DNA of 64,000 nucleotides from Eledone cirrhosa. Taxonomy: Eukaryota. The DNA lies in NCBI GenBank assembly GCA_964016885.1, contig OZ024742.1, positions 37,448,001 to 37,512,000 of the forward strand, read 5' to 3'. This document shows positions 7,430 to 63,825 of this stretch, one piece after another. The translations under genes and the position numbers were made by a program. The number at the start of each line of letters is the position of its first letter. The stretch's first letter is position 1. The notes beneath the pieces were generated by a model. That model was not told the origin of the DNA. It saw only the letters and a list, made by a program, of their open reading frames with translations, and searched no databases.

Positions 7430-7514
7430 GTAACACATCTTTAAACTGTTAAGTTGCTATGCTCTTAGAGCAACCTCCTCCACTGCTAATTAGATGACTG
7501 AGAGTTATTAGCTG

Positions 7515-7780
7515 GCTGCTGTTGATGATGGTGGTGATGCTATTGTTGCTGTTGTTACTACTGTTGGTGGTGGTGGTGCTACTGTTGTTGTTGGTGGTGG
7601 TGGTGGTGGTGCTACTGTTGTTGGTGGCGGTGGTGCTGCTGCTGTTGTTGGTGGTAGTGGTGCTACTGTTGTTGTTGGTGGTGGTGCTACTGTTGTTGTT
7701 GGTGGTGGTGGTGGTGGTGCTGTTGTTGGTGGTGGTGGTGGTGGTGGTGCTGCTGTTGTTGGTGGCAGTGGTCGTGCTAC

Positions 7781-7811
<31 letters not shown>

Positions 7812-8786
7812 GCTACTGTTGTTGTTGTTGGTGGTGGTGGTGGTGCTGCTGCTGTTGTTGGTGGTGGTGCTGCTGCTGTTGTTGGTGGCAGTGGTCGTGC
7901 TACTGTTGTTGTTGTTGTTGGTGGTGGTGGTGCTACTGTTGTTGTTGTTGGTGGTGGTGGTGGTGCTGCTGTTGGTGGTGGTGGTGCTGCTGTTGTTGTT
8001 GTTGGTGGTGGTGGTGGTGCTGCTGTTGTTGATGGCAGTGGTTGTGCTACTGTTGTTGTTGTTGTTGGTGGTGGTGCTGCTGTTGTTGTTGGTGGTGCTG
8101 CTGTTGGTGGTGGTGCTGCTGTTGTTGGTGGCAGTGGTCGTGCTACTGTTGTTGTTGTTGGTGGTGGTGCTACTGCTGTTGTTGGTGGTGGTGGTGGTGG
8201 TGGTGCTGTTGTTGGTGGTGGTGGTGGTGGTGGTGGTGGTGGTGGTGCTGCTGTTGTTGGTGGCAGTGGTAGTGCTACTTTTGTTGGTGGTGGTGGTCCT
8301 GCTGTTGTTGGTGGTGGTGGTGCTGCTGTTGTTGGTGGCAGTGGTAGTGCTACTTTTGTTGGTGGTGGTGGTGCTGCTGTTGTTGGTGGTGGTGGTGGTG
8401 GTGCTACTGTTGTTGTTGTTGGTGGTGGTGCTACTGTTGTTGTTGGTGGTGGTGGTGGTGCTACTGTTGTTGTTGGTGGTGGTGGTGGTGGTGGTGCTGC
8501 TGTTGTTGGTGGCAGTGGTCATGCTACTTTTGTTGGTGGTGCTGCTGTTGTTGGTGGTGGTGGTGCTACTGTTGTTGTTGGTGGTGGTGGTGGTGGTGGT
8601 GCTGCTGCTGCTGCTGCTGTTGTTGGTGGTGGTGGTGCTACTGTTGTTGTTGTTGGTGGTGTGTGCTACTGTTGTTCGTGGTGGTGGTGGTGCTACTGTT
8701 GTTGTTGGTGGTGGTGCTGCTGCTGCTGCTGTTGTTGTCGGTGGTGGTGGTGGTGCTACTGTTGTTGGTGATGGTGGTGGTGCTAC

Positions 8787-8817
<31 letters not shown>

Positions 8818-8962
8818 GGTGCTGCTGTTGTTGGTGGTGGTGGTGCTACTGTTGTTGTTGTTGGTGGTGTGTGCTACTGTTGTTGGTGGCAGTGGTGGTG
8901 GTGGTGGTGGTGCTACTGTTGTTGTTGGTGCTCCTACTGTTGTTGGTGCTCCTAGTGTTGTG

Positions 8963-8994
<32 letters not shown>

Positions 8995-9078
8995 GGTGTT
9001 GCTGTTACAATTGCTGCTGTTGTTGTTTGTGGTGGTGGTGGTTGTGGTGTTGCTATAATTGCTACTGTTGTTGTTGAT
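7515..9078. repeat. compound trinucleotide repeat (GTG/TTG/CTG)n, ~1.55 kb, intronic
   Basis: Low-complexity array; explains the spurious poly-V/L and poly-T/N/S ORFs. Confidence 0.95.
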
Positions 9079-9539
9079 ATCTGAAGGTTGTTTCTTTTGT
9101 GCCCTCCTCATCACCATTAACATTATCATTAATAATTTTACCTATAATGGCTGTCTGAGGCAGACCACCTCTACCTATGTAAAGTCAGCAATGCCCATGC
9201 AGAATTTTAGGTCCAATGCAGCTTGCACAACACCTCATGGATCCTCTTTGCCAGATGTGCAAGATTACCAACAAGCCAGTGTATGATTTCAGATGTAGAA
9301 CCCAAGCTCAGGAGTGTGGGGGGCATCATAATCTTCAGTTGGAAGCATTATTCCCTTTAATTTTCCTAAACCACTGAATAGAATGACTGATACTTTAAAC
9401 AAAAATATTTTAAATTCAAAGTTACTATGTGGTTCCATTTTGTTGTGTATAGCAACATTTTGATGTGTATGGAAATGTTTCAATGTGTGTGGCAAAGGTT
9501 CTTACAAAAAACTTTGATGGAAAAACATACACCTTTGAA

Positions 9540-24118: not shown

Positions 24119-25465
24119 TTATTTTATCACACCAGAAGTGGGGCTCTGTACTGATTGAAGAGAAAGGCTAATTTCCTCATCTGTTTTTGTTATCCTCTTT
24201 TCAATAATATTAGAGAAGTCATATGCTAGTTTCTCAAAGTTTTTCTTGAGTAGAAATCGCCTAATGATGAGCCCAAATTTCTCTAAACTCCAAATGTTTC
24301 TCCATTTGCACAGGGTCTTAAAAAGGCGATGCCAAGGGCAATTAGGATGTATATCGATTATAGAGATGTCGTTATTTCTAACATCATGAAAGATATCTCC
24401 ACGTGTAGCGCGTTTTTTGTCAACGGCTACAATTAAGTCAATTATATGCTGGTTAGTAATTATATTTGGGATACCATCTTGAATAATACATTTGGCCTCT
24501 GTCTCAAGTTTTCGGTCCACCAGAAAGAAACAACTAAAGATTTCATCATTAAAAATGTTATTTTTTATCCTATCTTCATACTTTACCAATAGATCATGTT
24601 TAACATTTTTATCCATGAGATAGCCTTTTATGGTTGAATATATTTTGATTGTTTTTAACAAAACGCAATCGAAGTCTTGAGGTGGCTCGTTTGGTAACTT
24701 TGGCATAGAATTTAGATCAGGTTTTTCAAAGTCGTCTTCTTCTTCACTGTCCGGATCAACATACGGGTTGTGCGGCTTGGCCTCAGTTTCGATTTTATCC
24801 ACGTAAAAATCTTTTTCGAAATCTAAGAATTCCTTATCATCTTTTTTAAATTTCTTGTTTTTTTCGATGTTGTCGAAGTATTCTTTAATGTCCTTGACAC
24901 AGAGAATGTCGTACTCTTTCCCTTCCAGTTTAGAGTCATAAATCTCTTTGAACAATTTCACACATTCTTTTTGCAGATCATCGTTTAAAACACTTTCTCT
25001 CCATTTCAGAAATATATCCTCATAATTACTAATACGAAGTTTCTTGTCCTTCTTTGCGGTTTCTTTATCTTTAATTGCATTATATCCGATTGGGAGTGAC
25101 GACAGTTTTAAAACTTCGCGCAGTTTTCGATAAAATCTAAAATCAGTAACCCTTTTATTCAGATGAAGATAATTTATAATAAACTTATAAATTGCATCCT
25201 GGTGTAACTTCTCTTTCTTATAATCAATGTGAAACAATCCGATGAAACTATTCACAGCTATTTCAGAAAACCCGAGCGTAAATCCCAGTCTAAAAGCAAC
25301 ATCTTTATCTTCAATCGTTTTTGTCCAATTTTGTAAATCAGAGAACTTGAAAAGTCCCTTGTACTTTCTTTCCTCCGAGGGTGTTCCATATTTATAAAGA
25401 TCCTCCCAAAACTTTTCTCTGTATTCTTCTGCAGATGTTTCTGTTTGCTTGTTAGTTTCCGACAT
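24119..25465 (-). CDS. intronless 448-aa uncharacterised protein, possible N- and C-terminal death-fold domains
   Basis: Long uninterrupted non-repetitive ORF. LGFTLGFSE.AV..F and FKTLCKWRN...L...FEKLA resemble death-domain helices. - strand AATAAA near 23755. The product call is inference. Confidence 0.7.
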   Translation of the reverse strand: MSETNKQTETSAEEYREKFWEDLYKYGTPSEERKYKGLFKFSDLQNWTKTIEDKDVAFRLGFTLGFSEIAVNSFIGLFHIDYKKEKLHQDAIYKFIINYLHLNKRVTDFRFYRKLREVLKLSSLPIGYNAIKDKETAKKDKKLRISNYEDIFLKWRESVLNDDLQKECVKLFKEIYDSKLEGKEYDILCVKDIKEYFDNIEKNKKFKKDDKEFLDFEKDFYVDKIETEAKPHNPYVDPDSEEEDDFEKPDLNSMPKLPNEPPQDFDCVLLKTIKIYSTIKGYLMDKNVKHDLLVKYEDRIKNNIFNDEIFSCFFLVDRKLETEAKCIIQDGIPNIITNQHIIDLIVAVDKKRATRGDIFHDVRNNDISIIDIHPNCPWHRLFKTLCKWRNIWSLEKFGLIIRRFLLKKNFEKLAYDFSNIIEKRITKTDEEISLSLQSVQSPTSGVIK

Positions 25466-26079
25466 ATTGTAATTAAACTGCTCAACCAGGAAGTTAATGT
25501 TGAAGTTGGTGGTGGTGGTGGTGGTAGTGGTGTTAGACCACGCATACCATGAACTTCATTGGTTAAGCTTCGTTTTTAGATCAGACAACTCCCGATAATT
25601 TCCGTGGGTGAAAATGGTAGTTAAAAAAAAAAAAAAGTTATCACCATCGCATTATTAAGAAGCCGAGGTTGACTTTGCCTTTCATCCTTACGGGGTCGAT
25701 AAAATAAAGTACCAGTAATGCACTGGATGATTGCTGGCCTTGTGCCTAAAGTAGAAACAATTATTAAGAAATTTAGTGTTCGATTGCACAGATACAGCTT
25801 CGAAGATGAGGTTGTTTATTAAAATCTTGAAAAAATTCTCCTTCTCACAGATTAAAATTACTACAAGTTGTCAGGAATCTTAAAAAGAAAGATTGTCAAC
25901 TATATTATCTAAAGTGTCCTCCCTCGCCCTTTTTTTTTTCAAAGTTAATTATTTGAGGGAGATTTGGCTACTATTTCTAACAAGTTTCATCTTTATTATC
26001 ATATTTAATTTTTGTCTACGGGAGATAACTCACGAAGATTTAATTTTTTTTTAAATAATTATTTTCAAATGTTCATTAC

Positions 26080-31800: not shown

Positions 31801-33153
31801 GGTTGAAATAATATCAAAATCTCATAGATTCCATATGTGAGATAATTATGTTAGATGAAAATATAATAGTAGATATAGAGTAATGCTAAAGAGTTAAGAG
31901 GAAGTTTTTTTTATGATTTACAAATGAGACAAATCAATAAAAATTAATGAGAGGAAAAATAAAGTGAGAGAAGACATGCACACGCAATTACACACTACAA
32001 CAGGCAATGGTTGTTTTAGAATGTCTATATTTATCTAAAAACCTTCCATGATATTTTATGTAAGAACCTTTAAGTTATGTTCCAAGCACCTTAATAATAA
32101 TGAGAAAGTTGTGTTACTAAATCCTCCCAAATTCTTGATTATCTGAAAATTATTTAAAAATCATAGACTGTATTTCATCAGGAATATAATAACAAAAAAG
32201 TTAAATCTCATACTGTCTCCTATTTTAGGCTATTATCTGGTGACACAGAGGCAGGAATTTCTCAGCAAAAGTTCAACTACAAATCCATCAGTTTGTGACC
32301 TTAAAGGAACATGAAAGACATTTGTAACACTGTTTATAAAACCGTCATTGAGTTGCTGTCAATCTGCAATTGCAAGGATTTCGTACATTCATAACATTGA
32401 TATTTTTGATGATCTTGATGTTGCAGTGCCTAGTAGTTTAGTAGTTAGGATGTTGGACTTACAATCATAAGGTCATGGGTTCAATTCCTGGACTGGATGG
32501 CGTGTTGTGTTCTTGTCATAATAGGTCTGGGGACCCTGTATCATTAAAACAACTAAGAAACCTATGAAATGCAGCTTCATAGGAGGTCAGCTATACCAGC
32601 ATAAATCTGAGCTGTAACAAGACTGTATATATACACACACATATTTTAGGACTGGGGTCTCCAGCATTAAAACACACAAGAAAACTATGATATACAATCA
32701 CGTAAGAGCCAAACCTGCATAGGTGTGGGCTATAAATTTTATTTTTGATGATTACAGGGGTAGAGATGAAATTGACATAACCTGAATTATCCACACTCTC
32801 CTGTATAATTCTTTTACTAGTTTCACTCATTAGACTGACGCCAATCCTATCGACCCTAGTACATATTTTTCTCAAGTCTGGTACTTAGTTTATCAATCTC
32901 ATTTTTGTTGAACGTTAAGTCATAGGACATAAATACACACACACACATATTTATATATATATATATATATATACGGCAGGTTTGGTCTACCCAAGACTAA
33001 AGTGGCACGCAGTGAAAGTGAACCTGAAACCATGTGGTTGCAAAGTACACTCCTTAACCTCACAGCCATGCCTGCTGTAAAATACGATCTACTGTTAGCT
33101 TTTAGTAAGAATTATTAGTCCTTATTTTGGTATACTTTTAAATAGTGGAAGTG

Positions 33154-34287
33154 ATGGAAGTTGATGATGAAACACAGTCTGAAATTAGTGATTTAACTCC
33201 TCAGACTCGAGTAGATAAAAAGAGAAAATCCTATCCATGTGATATCTGTGGCAAGACATTCTCACAGAGTAGTAATGTAATTCAGCATAAGTTAATTCAT
33301 TCTGGTACAAAACCTTATGCTTGTGGGGTTTGTGGTAAAAAGTTCACTGCGAATAGTTCTCTTTCTTGTCATAAACGGATCCATACTGGAGAAAGGCCGT
33401 ACAACTGCAATATCTGTGATAAAGCATTCACAATCAAAAGCAATTTGACCAGCCATGAGCGTATACATACTGGGGAGAAGCCATTTCATTGTGAAGTATG
33501 TGGCAAAACATTAGCTCGCAGTACAGAGTTAGCTCATCATATTCGGACTCATACTGGGGAAAAACCATACCAGTGCAATGTCTGTGACAAAGCATTCTCT
33601 AAAAAGGATTCTTTAGTACGTCACCAACGTATTCATACAGGAGAGAAACCATACAGCTGTGATATTTGTGGGAGAACCTTTTCTCTGAAAGGTTCCTTAT
33701 CCACACATCTGCGAACACATGAAGATAAACTATCATATGAATGTAGTATATGTGGCAAAATACTATATCGAAAATATGATTTGGTGAGGCATAACTGTGC
33801 TCGCACTCTACAGAAACAATTTGTATGCAATGTTTGTGGTGAAGAGTTTCATCAGAGATGCCATTTATTTAGACACAAGCAAACTCATATTGGAGATAAA
33901 CCATATCTTTGTGACATTTGTGACAAACCATTCTCACAGAAAAATCAATTACATGTCCATAAGCGTACACACACAGGAGAGAAACCTTATAACTGTGATA
34001 TCTGTGGTTATATGTTCTCTCAGAAAGGTCATTTGTCTCGTCACATGCGTGTACACACTGGTGATAAATTATACCTGTGTGACATCTGTGGTAAAAGTTT
34101 TTCTCGGTGTAATAATTTGTCTTCTCATGTGCGTACACACACAGGTGAAAAACCATTTGAATGTGATGTCTGTGGTGAAGCCTTCACTGTAAATAGTCAA
34201 TTATCTATTCACAAAGGTATGCACAGAAAAAGTGAGACATATTTCACAGTGAATATTGTCAGTAAAACATTCAAACCTGGCTGTTAA
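33154..34287 (+). CDS. C2H2 zinc-finger protein, 12 fingers (11 canonical, 1 atypical)
   Basis: Tandem CxxC...HxxxH with HTGEKPY linkers. Splice acceptor ttttaaatAG at 33145, first in-frame ATG at 33154. An upstream exon is possible. Confidence 0.93.
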
Positions 34288-37400: not shown

Positions 37401-38519
37401 TTGGAAGTCTTATAGGGTAATTTCTTTTCCATGTTTGTTTAACACATTTTTGTACAAAAAGCCCACATTGTATTGTTCTGTGGTGTCTTTAATGTTTTCT
37501 TCATGTGAACCCTCTATTACTATTTTAACTACTGCTATTGTTGAGAAGAAGGGACAGTGGATGATAATGATAGAAGTGGTGGTTATAGTAACCACTGCTT
37601 GAAAGCCAAGATTTCTAATGAGAAGAAAGCAATGAAAATAACCTGGACCTTTTTTACAGCTGATTTATCCCCAAACTTCTATTAATGATCCCTCATCATT
37701 TAATGGTGGTGACTGATAGATAAATAGTGGTACCAGAGGTGGTAGTAGAAGTGATGGGGATGATGGAAGATTGAAAATCAAGAAGGTTAAAGAAAATTCA
37801 GAGAATGTAATCAAGAAATTATAAGATATTGATAGATATTATATCAGTATATATAAATATATATATATAATTCGATTTTGAATTTATTTTGCAAGATTTC
37901 TTATCTGGAAACGTGTGTTTCAACAGGTATTGTTATACTTTGGGAGGGTCATGCTGCCAGTAAAAACACACACACCTGTTGGTTTTCACTTCAATTTATT
38001 ATATGTTTCCAGAAGGTTGTTTATATATTGTCAAAATTCTTTCGTCACACATTCTGTGACCTCAGTGACTAGGTTTTTATTTTGTGTCTCACCTTTGTTG
38101 TCCTACACCATCTTGTTTTTGTGTGTTGTGTGCTTAGTTTGCGCATGTTACATCTGGGTATGTGTTTTTTATTTATGTGTTTATTTACTTGTCACTAGTT
38201 GGTTGTATGTATCATCATCATCGTTTAATGTCTATCTTCCACGCTAGCATGGGTTAGACGGGAATTGTCCCACTTGAGGCAAGATTGGTCGGGTGACCGT
38301 GTCTCGCTCGTATAGGACAATCTGGCATGTTTTCTACGGCTGGATGCCCTTCCTAACACAAACATTTAGTGTGGACTGGGAGCCTTTTTACCATGTCTCC
38401 TACACAACCACTTTACGGCGTGGACTGGATGTAATGGTACCAACATAACTTTACAGAGAAAGGGTGGAGTAGGGTTGGGGTGGCAGTACAAGTTGTAGGG
38501 AGATGAGGAGAGAAAGTAA

Positions 38520-45397: not shown

Positions 45398-48312
45398 TGT
45401 AGTGACGCTACTTGCCTTTGGCGTATTTATAAGCTATTCATACGTGATTTGGCTAAGTCAGGCCAATTATAAGCCACGCACAGATATATATTCCAACTTC
45501 CGCCCAAACAAAGATTTTCCCGCTTCTTTCGTATATACTCTCTATTCTTGCTTGGACTTTAAAGGGAAAAGATACTATTATATAACAGTGAGATCTTCAC
45601 TTTGGCCTGTCAGCCTCCTTCGGCCAGACACAATGCCTTTCTTACTTCTAAACTCTTAATTTGTTTGTTCCTTTGTTTGACATGTCAACTCAACTTAACT
45701 CTCTATAATTTAGATGTAAACAAAAACATATAAAAATGTTATTCGAAGACTTACAACTATATCAACAAACATTCACTTTCTGCTAACATTTACCGTTACA
45801 ATTGTGGGGATGGTGTGGTGGTGTGGAGGAGGTGACCGGAAGCTGGGGACGCTTGACCGGAGGCAGAAGAGGAAGTGACGTGAGATGCGTATCCAGGAGT
45901 GTCTGTGGGTTCTCTTTCGGCTGTGACCCGCGACGGATGGACGTGCGAATGCGAGCTGCAACTTGGCGAATGGATTATACCCACAGGTGGCGAGGTCACG
46001 GATGTCTGCGGGGAAACCCTGCGTGAGTGGAGACGTATGACAGGGGCTTTCACAACCGTTGATTTAAAGTCAGCATATCTACAGCTACACGTGGAGGAGA
46101 AGCTGTGGCAGTATCAGCTGGTCAGGTATAAGGGCTGGGCATATTGCCTGACCAGGCTCGGCTTCGGGCTGAACTCTGCACCGAAGATCATGGCGGCGGT
46201 CCTCAAGACCATTCTGAGAAAGACCGACAAGATGAAGAGGGCTTACAATTCCTACATCGACGACATCCTAGTGGACGAGACTGTAGTGCCGGCGGCAAAG
46301 GTCACGAGCCATTTACAAAAGTACGGATTGACTGCGAAGCTGTCTGAGGCGTTGGAGGCAGGAGACGCGCTGAGACTTAGGCTGCAAAGAGACAAGACGG
46401 GCATGTTAGTATTTCGGAGGGGAAATGAAGTCCCGGAACAGGGCCCAAATATGAATAGACGGGAACTCTTCTCGGCATGTGGAAAATTGGTGGGTCACTA
46501 CCCAATTGCTGGGTGGCTCTGGACGGCATGCAGCTATGTCAAGAGACGAGCAGACGGGGTGACTTGGAGTGACAAAGTGGAAGAGAGGACAGTGGCCATG
46601 ATGCAGGAGATCATGGGGAGGGTGAAGGCCGACGACCCGGTGTGAGGACGCTGGTATGTCCCCGAATCACAGAGCGGGACCGTATGGTGTGATGCCAGCA
46701 GCATAGCGCTGGGTGTCACGCTGGAGATAGGAGGTGTCGAGGTCAAGGATGCAGCCTGGCTCAGGAAGAAGGATGATTTCAACCACATCAATGTGGCCAA
46801 GCTAGACACGGAGATGGGTGAACGTCGCCTTGAGGTGTGGACTGCGCACGATCGAGATTCGCACCGACTCGGCCACTGTACTCGGATGGGTGAGATCAGT
46901 GCTTACCAGTGAGAAGAGAGTGCGAACGAGAGGGGCAGTGGAAATGCTGATAAAGTGCCGCCTGGGAACTCTAGGAGAGCTGGCCACTGAGTTCGACCTG
47001 AAGTTGAGTGTGGTCTTCGTACCCTCAGAGAAAAATAGAGCAGACGTTCTAACCAGGATGAAGAAAGCCTGGATGGAAGCGCCGGAGGATGTAGAAGAGA
47101 GGATAGCTGCTGTGTGTCGGCTGAGCGAGTCGGAACTTAAAGGGTTGCATGACATGCACCACATGGTAGTGGATAGGACCCTGTTCCTAGCCAGGAGAAT
47201 CGACTCCGATGTTAGCAAACACAGTATCCAGAGAGTGGTCAGAGGCTGCGTCCGATATCAGTCTATCGATCTGCCCCAGGTGTGCACAAGGCGGTAAGTT
47301 TCCTGGTGGATCGCGACTGGAGGTGGACATAACACACTACCGACGGAACATACCTCTCGATGGTTGACTGTGGACCGGGACGGATGGCGATATGGAGGGA
47401 AATGAAGACAGGAATTGTGGAGGAAATCACACGGATATTGAGAGATATTCTTGGAGCGGGGCCCTGTGGATGAACTGCTGATGGACAACAGCGGAGCGTT
47501 TCGCTCGGAGACACTGAGGGAGATTCTTGATGGGTGGAAGGTGGACTGCTTCTTCAGAGCAGCATACAGGCCGAGCGGAAATGGAATCGTGGAGCGACAC
47601 CCCGCACAATCAAAGCAATGGCAGAGCGGGGGCACATCTCACCAATGGAGGCAGTGTTTTGGTACATGTCCCCTCAGGTGGGACAGTCTGAGGAATCGGT
47701 GCCACACAGAGCAATAGACAGATACGAGTGCCGGCACCCGTGCACTGTCCACAATGGCCAGTGGAGAGAGAGAACACAATCATACAGGTGGGCGAAGAAG
47801 TCTGGGTTAAGCCCCCAGACGCACGTTGCACATCTCAATGGGGAAAGGGAACGGTAATGGCCGTAAATTCCCAGAATAACGGGTCCGTGGACGGAGTGCC
47901 ACATCATACCCTGGATGTCCGTAGAATCGTTGTGTCGACAGACTCCGAGGAAGAGAAAATCCAAAACGCCGCCCCAACATTACGGATATCGCAACGAGAT
48001 CGCCGAACACCTGGCTGGGCGGCAGATTATCACATGCAGCAGTGTGAGGGGGAGATTGATCCTTGAGATCAGGGGGGCATGTGGGGATGGTGCGGAGGAG
48101 GTGACCGGAAGCTGGGGACGCTTGACCGGAGGCGGAAGAGGAAGTGATGCATACCCAGGAGCATCTATGGGTTCTCTTTCGTGTGAATGCGAGCTGCAAC
48201 TTGGCGAATGGATTATACCCGCGTGGATGAGGCATGGCTCGCTGAGTGAGCTAGCAGAATTGCGGTAAGTGCAGTAGCTTTCTCATTACAACAATAACAT
48301 TTTGCTGCTACA
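45398..48312 (+). mobile_element. solo LTR interrupted by a nested Gypsy element
   Basis: TGTAGTGAC start and GCTACA end; shares CTTTGGCCTGTC.GCCT...CACAATGCC with the 50581 LTR. Confidence 0.6.
45803..48290 (+). mobile_element. Ty3/Gypsy LTR retrotransposon, gag/protease deleted; RT-RNaseH-integrase pseudogene
   Basis: LTRs 45803-~45982 (truncated) and 48080-48290; PPT AGGGGGG; 5-bp TSD ACAAT; DLKSAYLQ, LGFGL.SAP, YIDD, WCDAS, TDSA, MDN..AF, NGIVERH. Confidence 0.93.
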
Positions 48313-48719
48313 CAAAACAATACATTTTCTTGCTAGTAAAACAAACTGCTATACCTTCACTTAGAGATCTTAGTCTTACCATAAGAAACAAAAAAACTTG
48401 TTCAATACAACTTGAAAATTTGTCAGCCACTGGCTTTTGTATTCTTTTTCTGGTTTCAATCATTAGACTACAGCCATGCTGGAGCACAGCAGTAAAGCAA
48501 TTTAGTCCTGTGTGAGCGAATCACAGTCCACCGACCTGATCTCTGACAAAGCGACGGCCTGCCCTACCCATGCTAGTGTGGAAGATGGACATTAGATGAT
48601 GATGATGATGATGACAACCAAAGTCATAAAAATCAAACGGAACTCAAATGTCAGCTTTCACACAACAAAGACTTTAGATCACAAGACAGTGGCATTCAAC
48701 AATCACAAGATGTAGTAAT

Positions 48720-49450
48720 GTGGAACCGAATGTAGGTCTGGCTCCAGGAAGGAGCTTAGCAATGGCAACAGGGGACATGATACCAGCGACAGGAGACATC
48801 AATCCAACTGTTAGCAAAAAATTCTTACGGACATTCATTCATTACATTAATGCTTTTGACATTCCTAAAGACATTGCAAAATACAAAATGTCACCAACTG
48901 ACGAAGAATACTTTGAACTAAAAATAAATCATAGAATGTCTAATATACCGTACACAGATTTAAAAGCTAGCATGACAGTAGCAAAACTAGAATCATACTT
49001 ACTACCATGTAACACTTTCAGAGAAAACAGCGTTAGTTATAAAATATCCAATATCATATCAATAACTGACAAACTAAGCCCACTACAAAATACTACAACA
49101 AACATGACATTCCATGGATAGCAACGCCAAGACCATGGATTGCAACTTACATAGACATGGAATACGTTTTATTTCCTAATTCAACATATAATGTAGCAAC
49201 AAACGACAATTTCAGACATAACATACCTAATGCACATGAAGAAGGAACATTAAAAAACTTAATGACATCATGTAAATATAGAAAAGACTTGTGGTTATGG
49301 CAGGGTTTTAAAATTCCTTTGACATCAGAACAGACAATAGATGCACAAGAACTAATAAGTTACATGGATACTGGTAATTGGAGACCATTATACGCAGGAG
49401 AAACATCAAGCTATACTTGGGTTAACAAAAATCCAAGTTGGTTTAATATG
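48720..49450 (+). pseudogene. endogenous parvovirus-like capsid (VP) fragment
   Basis: INHRMSNIPYTDLKASMT...KISNIISITDKL...TF~RPWIATYID...PLYAGETSSYTW follows the parvoviral capsid motif order as recalled for Hamaparvovirinae; frameshift at a short duplication near 49112-49147. Confidence 0.65.
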
Positions 49451-49479
49451 ATGTATTACACTGTGTTTCATACTTTTAG

Positions 49480-52400
49480 CAGCATTACTAATTTAAGGAA
49501 AAGAAGAAGTATTGAAGCAGAGAAGTATTGTTATGAGGATTATAGACATCTTAAAGGTGTTAAGCTAGCAAGCACTTCCTTTTCGATGTGACAGAAATAA
49601 ATTGGCCTACACTCTGGATAATGAGGTTCTGAATCGTGGCATTTTTTTTTTAGCTACAGTACAGTTGATGGCAAAATATGATACCATTATGGCAGCTCAG
49701 GTTTCTGCAGTGCAAAACAAGTCTGGACAAAGAATTCAAACAATTAGAACAAGGAGAGGCTCAAAGTAAAGACCGTGGTGAATTTGTTACATACCTGAGC
49801 AAAACAACTATTAATTCAAATTATGAAGAATATGATACAAGAAGGAATTGTCATTAAGTTTCTCAAGTAATATATTATTCTATTGCGGTTGATTCAACAC
49901 AAGATAATTCATCTGTCAATCAGTTTAGCATTGTTATACGGTATATGCTTAAAGGTGCTATCTGTGAGTGACTACTTTCAATTGTGCCAAGTAATGATGG
50001 TATAGGAGAGGGGCATTTTGATCTATTGACTGTTATTCTTAAAATTGACCCCAAAGAATGTTTACCTGATAGCACAGATGGGCAGTATAATGGTTTATAA
50101 AGTAAAATTGCTGAAGTGGCAGATCAACATGCTCATATATGGTGCTATGCCCATGTCTTGAATTTGGTGATAACTGAAACAAAATGTTGTGTACCTGCAG
50201 TTTCGTTTTTCAATTTGCTCCAGAATTTAGCAACTTTTGTGAAAGCACCATACAAGAGAAAGGCTGTATGGATAGAAGTTGTTGGAAAAAATCTAGGACA
50301 AGGAAAAAATGAAATTATTGATGCTAAATGGTGAGACCAGATGATCAGGAAAATCCAATATAGCAACAACTATATTTGGATGTTTTGATCATGCCACTGC
50401 CAGTACTTTTGACATGCTTATCAATGATACAAGATTCAGACAAGTTTGATGCAAATGTTTTACTTCAAAGTCTTCTAAAGTTTGAAACCATATTGATAGC
50501 ATTTACTTAATTGTAAATATTTGAAACTACAACCCTGTTATCAAGTTACCTATAGACAAGTGGTTTAAATATGTTTACTGTGTAGTGACCTACGTTCCTT
50601 GGGCTCATAGATACATTCTCCATGCGTTATTTGGCTCAGCTCTGCCAATCGCCGCCAGCGAAGGAGAATGTATCTCGACACGCCCTGCAGGAAAAATTCC
50701 CGCGTCAGCTCAGAAATCTCTCTCTCTTGCAGCTTGACCATGCTAAGGTAAAGACCATTTATTCTTTTGCTCCGTAAGCACAAACAATATGTAACGGTGA
50801 GATTTGAACTTTGGCCTGTCGGCCTTCCTTGGGCCTGGCACAATGCCACATTCCTTTTGTAACCGTTTTATGTTTAACTTCAACTATACTATTAAACAAA
50901 CATTACTTTGTGTTACAACAAATAAACATACATCTCATCTCTTATTTCTCTCGTTGTCGATATTACTATCATATCCTTCTGCTAAAATGGTTACTTGTGG
51001 CGCTATTACTATTATCTACTTCTATACTTCACCTGCTAAAAATGGTGACCCCAAATCTTACTGCTAAAATTGGTGACCCCTAACGGAGGAATATTTTACG
51101 TACCAAATATTCCTTTTAAAATAAAATAAAAATTGGCAGTATATATATAAAAAAAAAAAAAATTTCACCATGAGGAAATTAGTATCAAAATGGCTATCAC
51201 CTCTACCAACAACAGCAGCCGCCTACGACATCTTTGAAAGAAAAAAATTAGCTGTATTTTCAAAATTATAGCACGGAAACATTTTTCTTTCGATAAGGCT
51301 TCCTGCAATACCAACAAACAAGCCAACACCAAACTTACGTGGTGACTTACGGCTCTTCAACGATCGACTTCGCTTTGATAGCAACAACAACAACAACAAC
51401 AATTCTACTAGCTTCCCAAAGAAAAGAAAAGCGAACTTTTTGTTAAAAGAACAATTCTTTCTTCTTTTTTTACAGGCAATGTTTGGACATTTATTTCTTT
51501 TAAACTGTATTATATGAAAATTCATTTTTTTTCCTATCATTGTATATATGACTGCACGCACACATTTTCTTTGCTGTATTACATGCCTGCATATGCACAC
51601 TCATTTCTTTGTCACACACCAACATGTTGTTGTCTATGGTATATGATCTTCAAGCGTTGTAATATTATGCGAGATCCCTTTTCACCTGGTGAAGGTACCA
51701 AAACATGCTGTCAACACTTGCAGCTTAATTCATCTGCACCGCAACACGAGAATGCTAATTGCAGCTGGATTCAAACAGTTTCGCATCTCATTGTCCTATA
51801 GCATAACAACCTCCATCTTGTTACTTTACACGACTCACTGGGAAAACAACAAATGGAACTGGACCAGTCAGCATTTCCACCATTTCACCAACCGATTCGG
51901 CAGATTTATGGAATTACCGCTTCAACTACTACCCACCTACAGATTGAACTTGCTTTTTTTCTTTTCAAAGCAACTAGCAATATTTTTTCCTGGCTGCCTA
52001 GCACTTCCGGCAATTCATCTGGGAGGCCGACAATTTCTTGCCTACCCATCTTCTTCCCAGCTCTGCTACAACATTTACCATAACAGCTCTGGTATAACAC
52101 TTACCATAACAACTATACAGCTCTGGTAAAGCATGAACAACACTGACAACATCATTGACAACACCTACTGGTAAACTACCATAACAGCTTCATCCACAGC
52201 TCTGATACAACACTTATCATAACAGCCAACATTTAATGCAAGAACAGCAACTTTGCTCATGTCAGACTTTATCCGTTTTCTGTTAGACCCCTGGTGGTCA
52301 CGTATAAATAGCAAAACAGCTAGTCATTTGACACAGCGGCTCAACACGGCCCTTAGCGCCTCATTTTTCTTCTTGCATGCATTCTTTTGTTCAATTTTTT

Positions 52401-52885
52401 TTCATTCTCTAGCTGATTTTCGAGTAAATGTGTTTAACCTAATAATGGATCACATTGTCCAGTCACTAGAATCACACTTTGTACAACACAAACAGCTGTA
52501 TAAAGATTTATGCTACCTGGACCCAGCAAAGTCTAAACTATTGCAGAGAAGGGTCTTGAAGTTGAAGCATTAGATGGTATTATTAAGTTGTTTCCACAAA
52601 TCAGCAAAGATCAAGTAAAATTGGAATTGTTTTCTTTTGCTTTAAACTTTGATGTATTAAATTTTTGGTCAATGAAAGTGGGAATATGGGTTCCAGCAGC
52701 AACAACTATAAAATATGCAGCACTTGCCCATCACCTGTACTGAAAATTCTGGCATCCAACAAACTTCATTACAAGGCATATGATAACCTATCAGTTACCC
52801 AAATCCAATGTGAGAGGACATTTTCAAAGTTGAAGATCATAAAGACAAGGTTAAGAAATTTGTTGTCTCAGGGCTCAAGATAAAC
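49480..52885 (+). mobile_element. hAT (ZMYM1/P52rIPK-type) transposase pseudogene, split by an LTR insertion
   Basis: ALPFR, YSIAVDSTQD, IWCYAHVLNLV, ETR, CERTFSKLKIIKTRLR (hAT dimerisation domain). Confidence 0.85.
50581..52410 (+). mobile_element. LTR plus duplicated Trp-type PBS and internal remnant, inserted in hAT
   Basis: TGTAGTGACC start; TGGTGACCCC twice (~51043, ~51071); short tandem repeats at 52060-52230. 3' boundary approximate. Confidence 0.65.
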
Positions 52886-52889
52886 AGGA

Positions 52890-54110
52890 AAAAAATTAAG
52901 CTGATAACAATCAACACCACTGCCAACACATCAGTCAGTGGAGAGCCCGTCAGAGAGGTCGAGTCTTTTGTCTAACTGGGAAGTGTGGTTGATGTCACAG
53001 CCAGGATTGGCAAGGCAAGAGCAGCTTTCATCATGCTAAAGAACATTAGGGCATCAAAAGAAATCTGCCCAAGAACCAAACTTAACATCTTCAACTTCAA
53101 CGTGAAGGCGGTACTGCTGTACGGATGTGAAACTTGGAGGACAACAAAAAAGATGCAGCAGAAGACATTCTTCAACATCTGTCTGAAGTGCATCTACAAC
53201 ATCAAATGGCCGGAGAAGATCAGAAACGAAGATCTGTGGGAACGAGCGGCAAAGCAGATTCTGCGAAAGAAGTGGAGCTGAATTGAACATATCCTCAAGA
53301 AACCAGCATCCAGCACCACACGTCAAGCCCGGACCTGGAATGCACAGGGTAAGAGGAAGAGAGGCCAGCCCCGTGGCAGCTGTGTAGCAAAATCTGTCCA
53401 CGCCTTGAACCCTGGCTGACACAGAAAGGTCAAATTCCGGGTCACCTCCTTTTCGGCGTAAACAAGTTCATGCGTGGGCGATCCCTCGAGGCGGGAAACA
53501 GAAAAAGACAGTTATAAATAGCCTGCACCAAACCAAAGAACACAGCGAGATCGGAGCAGTACGTGAGAGAATAGCTATGTAAAACATTCACCTCCGGGGT
53601 CTACAGACTGCTACAGACCTTTACTCTCTCTCTCCTGGTCTCAGACTACACCAGCATCATGAAGCAACAACAAAAACATCTTCAACTGTTATAACTCTTA
53701 ATAACCTATTCTTTGTTCATTTATGAAGTGAAGTGAAGTAAACCTTTTATATCAAAAGTAAACCAGCACATGAACTGCGGTAAGATAAACACCTATCCTT
53801 CTTTCGCTCCGGAAACATCATTCCAATATGTAACTACAAAACATTACCGCGGCCTGGCTTCTCAATTCAGCCACTGGACCGTGTCTTCTCTACAGATCTT
53901 AATTTGTTTGTTCATTTATTTTGGCATGCCAACCAACCAATACAGCTCTTCTCACCTTAAACATTGTTAATAAATTCTGTTACAATGAACTACAAATTGT
54001 TGTCAACATTATTTTATCTTACTTCTAATGATAACTAGTAACAACCTTCGCTTCAGCTGGAGGTGTGACACTGAGGCTGAATTAAGAAAACTGGAAGCCA
54101 ACTGCAGCTA
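52890..54110 (+). mobile_element. RTE LINE 3' fragment interrupted by a solo LTR
   Basis: ARIGKARAAF, VKAVLLYGCETW, WPEKIRNEDLW, GKRKRGQP; resumes after 54059. Confidence 0.85.
53383..54055 (+). mobile_element. complete solo LTR with 4-bp TSD
   Basis: TGTAGC...GCTTCA flanked by GCTG (53379-53382, 54056-54059); TATAAATA and AATAAA inside. Confidence 0.85.
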
Positions 54111-54149
54111 ACCCAGAAGTAAAAGGGTTAAAACATCCATGCAAGCTTC

Positions 54150-54820
54150 TTATAAGGAAAAGTTTTCAACAATCAAACAACTGTAGAAAGTGCGCAAAAC
54201 TAATCCACAATATTTATAGATTAGGAGATCTAATTTTTCAGAAAACCAGGAATGATGGCTACAAATTTATCAAGATATTAGAGCTCTTATGTAACAAAAG
54301 ACTAGTTGAAATGGCAAGGGAGGCTTGATCAGCGATCCCTCCCTTCACTAGATTTGGCGGCCACAGCATTGAAGAAGCCTTATTTTGGAGCCAAGAGAAC
54401 TCAGTCTCACCAGAAGTAGAGAACTTTTTAGTATTAATAGAAGCATTAACCCATCACAAGGATGTTGTTTATGTGTCCAGTTGGGGACATCCATTCATAG
54501 ATTATTTTGAAACATTAAAGAAACAACACGATTTAGTCACAATGGCGTTGCCAATAGGGCAAGGAAAATTTCTCGGTGACACGAACTTAGTCAGTTGAAG
54601 ATGACACAACCTAGCTCATGGCATTTGAAGCAAAGGTTTACATGGATGAAGTGGAGGATAACCTACAATATGGTGGCCAAAGTCCTATGGCTATAAAATT
54701 CATTTCTTTGGTTGGATTACAAGCATTAAAGATTATAGATATTAATACCCCGAGGAAACCTTATATGCCCAGAGACAAAAAGATGGTCCAGATCTTCTTG
54801 TCTCTCTAACAATCAAATAT
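54150..54820 (+). pseudogene. endogenous rhabdovirus L (RdRp) fragment
   Basis: NIYRLGD...[29 protein letters not shown] at 54482-54505; GKFLG; RGNLICPETKRWSRSSCLSNNQI at 54751-54819. Collinear with recalled vesiculovirus/lyssavirus L motifs. Confidence 0.88.
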
Positions 54821-54852
54821 TTTCTCTCACAAATCTACTATTTCACTGTGTT

Positions 54853-55172
54853 GAAATAGAAATTTGTAATTTACTGTTCCTTGTTCACATAATTTAAGGA
54901 AATAAACAAGACACCACCACAGTGTTCTAAAAATATCAACAATGTAGCAGCATATGTCGTAATCAAAGCCATAACTATCAAAAGAACTGTCAGTCATGTA
55001 CTAATGCCACCAACAAATAAAACTAAATATGAAGACAACCAAAGTCATAAAAATCAAAAGGAACTCGACTGTCAGCTTTCGGACAAAGAAGACTTTAAAT
55101 CACAACAAAATGGCATTCAGCAATCATCTATCCACTGCATCGAAATAGAAATTTGTAATTTACTGTTCCTTG
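54853..55172 (+). repeat. 31-bp direct repeats (54853-54883, 55142-55172) flanking a second copy of the sequence upstream of the VP EVE
   Basis: GAAATAGAAATTTGTAATTTACTGTTCCTTG twice; 55034-55126 matches 48613-48705 at 81/93 nt. Confidence 0.85.
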
Positions 55173-55834
55173 CCTCCAAAACTTAAGAGTTCCGTGTTAC
55201 AAATGAGTAGATTGTGGTGGTTTTTATTTCAATCAATATAGTTTATTCTGAACTGAGTTATTCAATAATTTGTGAACAACCTGATAGTTGTATTTTTTAA
55301 ACATAAATTATCTTGCACCATTATGAAAATTTTCATCAAAATGTCTGCTATAAATTAAATAGGTACACCATATCCCTTTCTGTCACAAGAGGGGAGCAGG
55401 AAAGTCATTTGATATGTGTGTACTTGGTTTAGAATAGGTATGCCATATCTCTGCATGTCATAAGAGGTGACTAAAATATATGCCTAAAAAAAATTTACCC
55501 CTGTTGTGTAGCCTCATAAGGCTAACCCCTGCTTTAGCAGGAAAAATAACCTCGCTGTTCTTGTAATTTAACTTATACCAGTGATACAATGACTGACTTT
55601 GTGTCAGTAATATTCTAGAACATTCTTTGAGAATGGCTACTTTATCTTATCACAAACGTATTGTAACAGGAAAGGAATCATATTACTGTGATATCAGTAG
55701 TAAAACATACTTTCTTCTGAAGGTGACTTAACCCCTCTGTGATCATACTCCTAATGAAATACTCTACCTGTGTTTTTGAAATAATAAAAAAATGTGGAAG
55801 GATTCAGTAAAATAAATAACTATGTATATCTGAT

Positions 55835-61948: not shown

Positions 61949-63825
61949 GGCAATATCCAATTTTACCGCCCGATTTGCTGCTGATGCTGTAGTTGCTGCT
62001 TACTGCTTGTTGCTAGCTGCTGCTACTGCTGACTTGCTGCTATTGTTGCTTAACTTGTGCTACTTACCTGCTTCACTGTATGAGGCTATTCCAACAAATT
62101 TACATTCTCTTTTTTTTAGCCGTTAAAAGAAATATAGATTTATTTATTTGCAACGTTTTTGTTTTTTTTTGCCAATGGGGCATAGATTTCTTTATTTGCC
62201 ACGTTTTTGTTTGTTTGTTTGTTTTTTTTTGCCAATTCGTGGAAAATACCCAAAGATTATTTATGAATTTCAGTTTAAAATCAATTATAAGATAATCACC
62301 GACAGAGGGCTAATATAAGTGAGAAAGTGATACTTATAATTTTGGGGTATATTGGCATAACTAGCTCCCTGCCGGTCATTTCAATGCAGATATTATTAAA
62401 GGTGAAATAACATAGTTCTGTTATCTTATAATTGATTTTAAACTGAAATTCATTCGTTCGAAAACATTCATTGAACACTGTACCACCAACCAGATTGCTG
62501 TTATAAATTACAACCCTGATTTGGAATTGCTGAATAAAGAAAATGCCTGGACGTCCACCTGCACCAATTTTCATTGTTGAAAATGTTAATTCATCACAGC
62601 AGACGTTAAATATGGATTTGAAAATGACGGAACTGGTGATTTTAACTGCAAACAAACTCAGTATTATTGAATTTATGGCTCGGAACCGATTAGTTTCAAA
62701 CACTATGAACTGTCCTTCATGTAATATTTCCTGTTCGTTTGTAAGTTACAAAGACAATCGACCAATTTCGATGGAAATGTAAGGTATGCAGTTTTACCAA
62801 ATCTGTCCGTTCTGGGTCATTTTTTTTTCGAAGCCACTTAGATTTACATCAAATGATTTATATGATTTACTTCTGGTCAATTGGGTCCGAAAATATTCTT
62901 ATTGCTGACGAGATTCGGTGTAGTGAAAACACCATTACTGACTGGTGCAACTTTTTACGGGATGTGTGCAGTGAATGGGTGGAGCGAAACCCATCAATAC
63001 TCGGTGGAATGGATGATGCCGGAGTCCCAATAGTTGTACAAATCGATGAAAGTAAATACTTTCATCGAAAGTACGCTCGTGGGACCTGGCATGAAGGCCA
63101 TTGGGTCATTGGTGGGATCGATACCAATAATCCCAGAAAAATGTTTATTGAAGAAGTCCCAGACCACACTGCTGAGACCTTGCTACTCATTATTGAAAAC
63201 CATGTGCTGAGTACATACGGACCAATGGCGTGCGTACAATCGCATACGACATATGCCTGGTAATTCACTAAATTTTGTCGATCCGGTATCAGGAACGCAT
63301 ACCCAGCACATTGAAGGACTCTGGTCTCATGCAAAAAAAAAAAAAAAAAAAAAAAAATGGCACTAGCCGACCCATGTTTCAGTCATATTTGAATGAATTC
63401 ATGTGGCGGTGGAGAAATGACAGCTTTATGAGTGGAGGCGGTAGATGTTTCCCAAAGATTTTAAACTGTATATCGGAATAATATATTGTTTAAAGAAATA
63501 TTTTTTTCTTTTTTATTGTTGCGATATACAGTTTAAAATTTGCTTCCAAAAGTTCAAAAAGATATAAATCTTTAAAAAAATTATAATAATTCTTTATTAT
63601 TATTTTCTTTTTCTGTAAATAATGCCCCAGTGGCAAATAAATCGCAAAAAAAACCAAGAAATTAACAAAAACGTTGCAAATAAATCTATATTTCTTTTAA
63701 CGGCTAAAAAAAAGGGAATGTAAATTTGTTGAAATAGCCTCATACAGTGAAGCAGGTAAGTAGCACAAGTTAAGCAACAAGTCACCAAGTAAGCAGCAAT
63801 TCGAGCGGTAAAATTGGATATCGCC
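61949..63825 (+). mobile_element. full-length Merlin (IS1595/ISXO2-like) DNA transposon, frameshifted transposase
   Basis: TIRs GGC(A/G)ATATCCAATTTTACCGC with ~200-bp imperfect subterminal IRs; 8-bp TSD AAAAATCT; VQIDESK, WVIGG, TDQWRAY, HTQHIEGLW, YLNEFMWR. Confidence 0.93.

Follow-up and report, generated by a model that had tools for sequence, protein, structure and literature searches.

A frame-broken parvoviral capsid gene fragment, very probably from an unclassified lineage, in the genome of Eledone cirrhosa

In the Parvovirinae and Densovirinae, a PLA2 domain lies in frame within VP1u, as it does in many relatives of the locus described here. All Hamaparvovirinae are without PLA2 according to the available portions of four sources (PMC10267136; bioRxiv 10.1101/571109; PMC9896142; PMC11357303), and a 2026 paper, in its available part, treats PLA2 as a derived trait of two subfamilies with one transfer (PMC13426907). 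In the literature searched, a hama-type shell combined with a genomic PLA2 has been described in two cases, the SwaBA-MePV-1-like megaparvoviruses, which have EVEs in beetles (PMC13426907), and AdSDV (PMC10267136); by description, PLA2 occupies a separate ORF there, whereas it is in frame and N-terminal in the capsid ORF of the PLA2-bearing relatives reported here. Arthropods are also known to carry chaphama-like EPVs (bioRxiv 10.1101/571109, available part). Closer to the present host, the available part of one paper (PMC5013282) records an endogenous NS in Octopus bimaculoides, parvovirus-related NS in Sepia, Euprymna and Lamellibrachia, and a VP transcript of Octopus vulgaris (JR446908) that matched AAV best (E 1e-7). 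These cephalopod and Lamellibrachia sequences may belong to the lineage reported below, a likeness by description only, as their capsid type is uncharacterised in that part of the paper. The available parts of two further papers (PMC8964545, PMC10433990) contain no link to this lineage.

The window analysed here is a stretch of 64,000 nucleotides from Eledone cirrhosa (contig OZ024742.1, positions 37,448,001 to 37,512,000). On its + strand, at 48723-49470, lies a single-copy, frame-broken sequence of ~245 of ~525 codons that is almost certainly an endogenous fragment of a parvoviral capsid gene (Table 1). A first-pass annotation made from the letters alone had read an endogenous parvoviral capsid gene here; the capsid identity stands, through the collinear homology of both frames, a family profile and fold comparisons, but what is left is a fragment and not a whole gene. 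It covers residues ~121-367 of the 525-aa relative P0003, the C-terminal third being missing. The A-rich composition seen in the first pass is real (40.4% A, against 30.4% across the whole window). So is the arrangement in two frames joined at a duplication: two + ORFs, 48678-49121 and 49070-49591 from stop to stop, overlap, and the frame breaks between 49115 and 49130. The duplication is smaller than the ~21 nt initially given, however, as 14 nt recur with a period of 21; its copies (49112-49125 and 49133-49146) are identical at 13 of 14 bases, a value equalled by 1 of 60 shuffles. Neither capsid-homologous stretch contains an in-frame stop, and because ~245 codons are free of stops, the insertion may be fairly young.

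Table 1. Positions of the capsid fragment, of possible VP1u pieces and of neighbouring elements within the window.
Feature	Position	Strand	Remarks
Decayed LTR retrotransposon, upstream	45806..48244	+	RVT_1 and DUF7047
3' end of an interspersed retroposon, (GAT)n tail	48505..48613	+	Left boundary of the capsid insert
Probable VP1u end	48608..48722	+	Other frame, abuts the capsid homology; based on position
Capsid, first frame	48723..49115	+	End of N-terminal arm and first jelly-roll strands; P0003 residues 121-249
Imperfect direct duplication	49112..49146	+	14-nt unit recurring after 21 nt, where the frame breaks
Capsid, second frame	49130..49470	+	P0003 residues about 251-367
Decayed DNA-transposon-like sequence	49480..50580	+	Right boundary of the capsid insert
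Mononegavirales L polymerase relic, rhabdovirus-like	54086..54830	+	Broken frames; unrelated to the capsid
Second, probably VP1u-derived piece	54893..55140	+	Helix after PLA2 core, and linker

A phmmer search of 1.84 billion representatives with the first frame (48762-49118) returned 13 matches, 12 of them from one family; the remaining match was dismissed as a repeat artefact. The best was P0003 (43% identity, E 3.2e-18). The second frame had been left out of this query, and its match to P0003 is therefore an independent test. Indeed, BLASTP aligned the second frame with P0003 (E 1e-14) collinearly, starting where the first frame ends, and hhalign matched it with 99.1% probability to alignment A7, from which window rows are absent. 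When 16 relatives were used in tblastn, all 16 matched the first frame, 10 also matched a further stretch that starts at 49130 in the other frame, and the matches across the whole window were confined to the capsid locus. The family profile likewise picked out 48720-49127 (iE 1.8e-37) and 49127-49471 (iE 1.8e-21).

Neither frame matches a Pfam or PDB capsid directly, and an Atlas search with the second frame gave nothing viral of note; the link to capsids goes through the relatives. This would be expected of a host or transposon protein that merely resembles a capsid. However, the relatives are proteins with both PLA2 and a jelly roll, some of them on ~4-kb contigs, and parvoviral capsids lead the fold searches. 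Moreover, both frames are collinear with the P0003 capsid. This collinear match refutes the reading, to which we give practically no credence.

The relatives themselves are nearly nameless: P0008, from the tubeworm Lamellibrachia satsuma, is the one of 58 shown with a name. In a tree of 17 rows, from which other relatives were excluded as near-duplicates or short, the window sequence falls in an open fork of eight rows that includes P0003, P0022, P0005 and the group P0006/P0012/P0032/P0033. Its highest identities among the tree rows are to P0022 (44%), P0005 (41%) and P0003 (36%). P0003, P0012 and P0060 sit on contigs of 4017, 4079 and 4187 nt, and ~4 kb is what a parvovirus genome measures; the contigs of P0016 and P0022 have 3807 and 3178 nt. 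Others lie on long contigs: 28 of the 29 members of four clusters (P0028-P0031) are on contigs of 25-557 kb, and six members of the P0013 cluster share the same longest contig size, 1.14 Mb. Such relatives have the appearance of endogenous elements present in several copies in animal assemblies. Searches of viral and metagenome contigs yielded no locus for any of the relatives. As a separate observation on the rows P0013/P0023-P0027 and P0028-P0059, some ENA assemblies contain many near-identical, often intact PLA2-VP1 ORFs on long contigs, possibly the outcome of recent mass endogenisation or of tandem arrays.

The stretch is present in four runs of one study, three of which were examined together with an uninformative RAD-seq run from another study. 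Contigs without a single difference cover 48624-49527 in run X2, 48624-49529 in X4 and 48624-50000 in X1; the X1 contig, 1412 nt long, leads from the insert ~530 nt into the downstream repeat and crosses the 3' junction. The frame break is crossed unchanged by contigs of three runs. Since contigs span both the break and the 3' junction unchanged, neither is a long-read error. In X2 the depth of the insert is 11.5-14.4, against 10.5-11.7 for unique flanking contigs, and the insert is at unique depth in all three runs. The insert is joined to host DNA at its 3' side, single-copy and decaying. The 5' junction is unbridged, the microsatellite at 48588-48623 having been skipped in the contig comparison, and the runs that cover the stretch may be those from which the assembly was made; both points would suit unintegrated viral DNA of an infected specimen, mis-assembled into the host. 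The frame break and truncation, the host-like depth in three runs and the 1412-nt contig over the 3' junction nevertheless make such an origin highly improbable.

The relatives were also scored for the PLA2 motifs YxGP and DxxCxxHDxxY in frame with the capsid core motif. Sixteen of the 58 combine PLA2 and core in a single ORF, 24 show the core without PLA2, three show PLA2 without the core, and 15 have neither pattern. Those 16 do not count as independent, since they fall into about four groups, six representatives being 26-81% pairwise identical; as the fusion recurs in about four divergent groups, a single gene-calling error cannot account for it. A parvoviral PLA2 domain was found in four of 13 sequences (P0003, P0008, P0010 and P0013), and P0003, the closest full-length relative, carries it in frame in VP1u. 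With a profile that includes VP1u, matches to AAV VP1 are confined to positions 5-136. P0006, P0012, P0032 and P0033 are ORFs without PLA2, and the truncated N-terminus of P0022 aligns to the helix following PLA2. Core-only relatives include full-length-looking ORFs of 429-448 aa, while many others are partial ORFs. The capsids of PLA2-bearing and apparently PLA2-free members are 27-29% identical. No PLA2 catalytic motif occurs in the window, where the fragment lacks that part of the gene.

Among solved capsid cores, the family profile matches the shells of SsChPV, PmMDV and PstDV only; the family core gave no match to solved Parvovirinae or Densovirinae capsids at E up to 10. The best match is the VP of Syngnathus scovelli chapparvovirus (SsChPV, 9NEK; Ichthamavirus, Hamavirinae, formerly Hamaparvovirinae), with E 3.9e-9 in two collinear stretches. 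The VP of Penaeus monodon metallodensovirus (PmMDV, 6WH3, Metallovirinae) is level with it (E 1.3e-8), and that of PstDV/IHHNV (3N7X) follows at E 3.2e-4. The likeness to PmMDV and PstDV lies in the strand-hairpin region and spans ~60 positions only; both viruses are without PLA2 according to the available part of PMC11357303, unlike the PLA2-bearing relatives. SsChPV differs as well, with a VP of 364 aa that has neither VP1u nor PLA2, against relatives of 525-580 aa with in-frame PLA2, and with ~17% identity by structure. Pfam IHHNV_capsid matches weakly in six of 26 family rows.

The Foldseek comparison with parvoviral capsids put forward in the first pass was run on two modelled relatives, and parvoviral capsids head the results. 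Both models are parvoviral jelly rolls with low to middling pLDDT (44 and 59), and 9NEK is the best match of one of them, although it is tied in VIA with human parvovirus 4 and the AAVs. The P0003 model scores above 9NEK with Parvovirinae, and the fold scores of the relatives tie with Parvovirinae and Densovirinae. These comparisons, made through the relatives, support a derivation of the window gene from a VP with the parvoviral single jelly-roll fold. They also support a putative shell of chaphama type, like those of SsChPV, PmMDV and PstDV, as a remote likeness.

The label Hamaparvovirinae-like given in the first pass thus keeps its sense as a remote likeness of the shell but not as subfamily membership. 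Filing the fragment in Hamaparvovirinae or Chaphamaparvovirus is not justified, because the nearest full-length relative and others carry a PLA2 that is absent from the subfamily. Membership is decided by NS1, for which no Pfam match was obtained in the window (271 of 336 ORFs of at least 55 aa searched, plus a few more). A true Hamavirinae (chaphama/ichthama) element, with a source virus free of PLA2 and the PLA2-bearing relatives as an offshoot in which the domain was acquired, would agree with the top rank of SsChPV in profile and Foldseek searches, with the 24 core-only relatives and their 429-448 aa ORFs, and with the arthropod EPVs cited above. Yet SsChPV is remote in sequence and PmMDV scores equally by profile; the nearest rows include P0003, with its PLA2, and P0022, whose N-terminus corresponds to the post-PLA2 helix; many core-only rows are partial ORFs; and a piece at 54.9 kb in the window weakly resembles a PLA2-type VP1u. 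We consider such an element improbable. Very probably, the fragment is instead the endogenous relic of a parvovirus VP from an unclassified lineage, with a hama/metallo-type shell and an in-frame PLA2 in many members.

A wider reading is evenly balanced: that this is an undescribed, subfamily-level lineage of marine invertebrates (annelids, probably cephalopods) in which a Parvovirinae-like PLA2 VP1u is fused to a hama/metallo-type shell, with repeated entry into the germ line and many intact copies in some genomes. The capsid architecture is apparently undescribed in the literature searched. Members may already be in GenBank without a name, since the top matches of the P0003 model in BFVD are unclassified 'Parvoviridae sp.' VPs of similar size from bird cloacal viromes, A0A8A4XDN7 (576 aa, E 6e-18) and A0A8E7G216 (533 aa, E 4e-15), at 18% identity. 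If true, this reading would break the rule that only Parvovirinae and Densovirinae have a structural PLA2; either modules would have been swapped once more between subfamilies, or hama-type lineages would have lost PLA2. The layout of the family bears on whether PLA2 was a late gain of two subfamilies, the position of PMC13426907 in its available part, or was joined to, or lost from, other shells; the presence of PLA2-bearing and apparently PLA2-free members makes gain and loss testable. By itself, the insert is one more decayed parvovirus fossil, and fossils of this kind have already been reported from octopus; what it adds is a host for a capsid family nearly nameless in databases.

We propose that part of a parvovirus VP gene entered the germ line of the animal, perhaps by end-joining repair or by retroelement-primed copying, and is now decaying. 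Transposon sequence cuts the insert short at either end, and at least one frameshift has broken it, at the short duplication, with a second one probably near 48720. It cannot form a shell, because the jelly-roll protein lacks its C-terminal third. The source virus itself presumably had PLA2 and would have used it to leave the endosome.

Two pieces of the window may derive from VP1u. The sequence abutting the capsid homology (48608-48722) has no significant protein match, but 48608-48720 recurs at 55029-55140 (87% over 98 nt), a repeat missed in the first pass. The ORF containing this second copy, 54893-55183, ranks first among the 1197 window ORFs by the VP1u profile, though with E 0.64, and reaches p 0.008 in one of 36 pairwise tests. 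The second piece has no catalytic motifs and lies on low-copy contigs, unlike the host repeats nearby. From these sequence comparisons, VP1u is a reasonably likely identity for the piece at 54.9-55.1 kb, and it probably, on weak grounds, comes from the same lineage as the capsid fragment. Separately, a ~70-nt direct repeat (54827-54898 and 55117-55187, 79%) brackets the second piece and links it to the L relic.

On the left, the insert is bounded by the retroposon-like tail already recognised in the first pass, where it was assigned to RTE, a (GAT)n end with copies at 38167-38318 (70%) and 584-632 (84%). On the right, 49480-50580 is multi-copy, with a summed depth of ~57-66 in X2 against ~11 for unique DNA. 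We take this sequence, read as a hAT relic in the first pass, to be putatively hAT-like from motifs visible in its translations; its short pieces have no Pfam or PDB match. Pieces at 52223-52880 (+), ~1.7 kb past the first part, presumably represent the C-terminal part of the same relic; they have no Pfam match. The LTRs of the upstream element (45806-46008 and 48075-48244) are 73.5% identical, and contigs of runs X2 and X4 in which 45933 is joined to 48188 suggest that solo-LTR forms exist elsewhere. The L relic, ~5 kb away from the capsid fragment, is a non-retroviral RNA-virus EVE, nearest to VSV and rabies L among solved structures (Pfam Mononeg_RNA_pol E 3.5e-6, 25.5 bits, below the cut-off of 27; VSV L E 9e-4). 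A relic of an RNA virus in a genome requires host reverse transcription.

This neighbourhood raises the question of a role that would be independent of coding. The capsid relic could work in a one-strand, piRNA-type locus, in which fragments of viruses and transposons are kept as a source of antisense RNAs, an idea compatible with the parvoviral origin preferred above. Pieces of a DNA virus and an RNA virus lie together within 45.8-55.2 kb, and all seven elements with readable direction there (LTR element, retroposon tail, capsid, hAT-like relic, DUF6451 piece, L relic and second VP1u piece) are on the + strand; a C2H2 zinc-finger array at 33.1-34.3 kb would also fit. The seven elements are not all independent, however, two of the directions come from motif resemblance or tail position, and a repeat-rich region collects such pieces without any function, so that we hold this role to be unlikely, if well above negligible. 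The co-oriented relics nonetheless make the region a candidate antiviral small-RNA locus.

Several other features of the window were noted. The zinc-finger array (33142-34284, +) forms one ORF of 381 codons, and a decayed finger-like piece lies at ~55600-55730. An intact, intronless ORF of 478 codons at 24122-25555 (-) is A-rich and rich in lysine and acidic residues; it belongs to no Pfam family, has no exact copy in the protein collection, and may represent a further insert, of viral or Polinton-like origin. At 62299-63260, a 172-codon + ORF overlaps a 149-codon - ORF; the former resembles, we presume, an IS1595-like/Merlin-type transposase, with no support from Pfam. Finally, a long GGT/GTT-type simple-repeat tract at 7450-9140 is the source of several spurious long ORFs.
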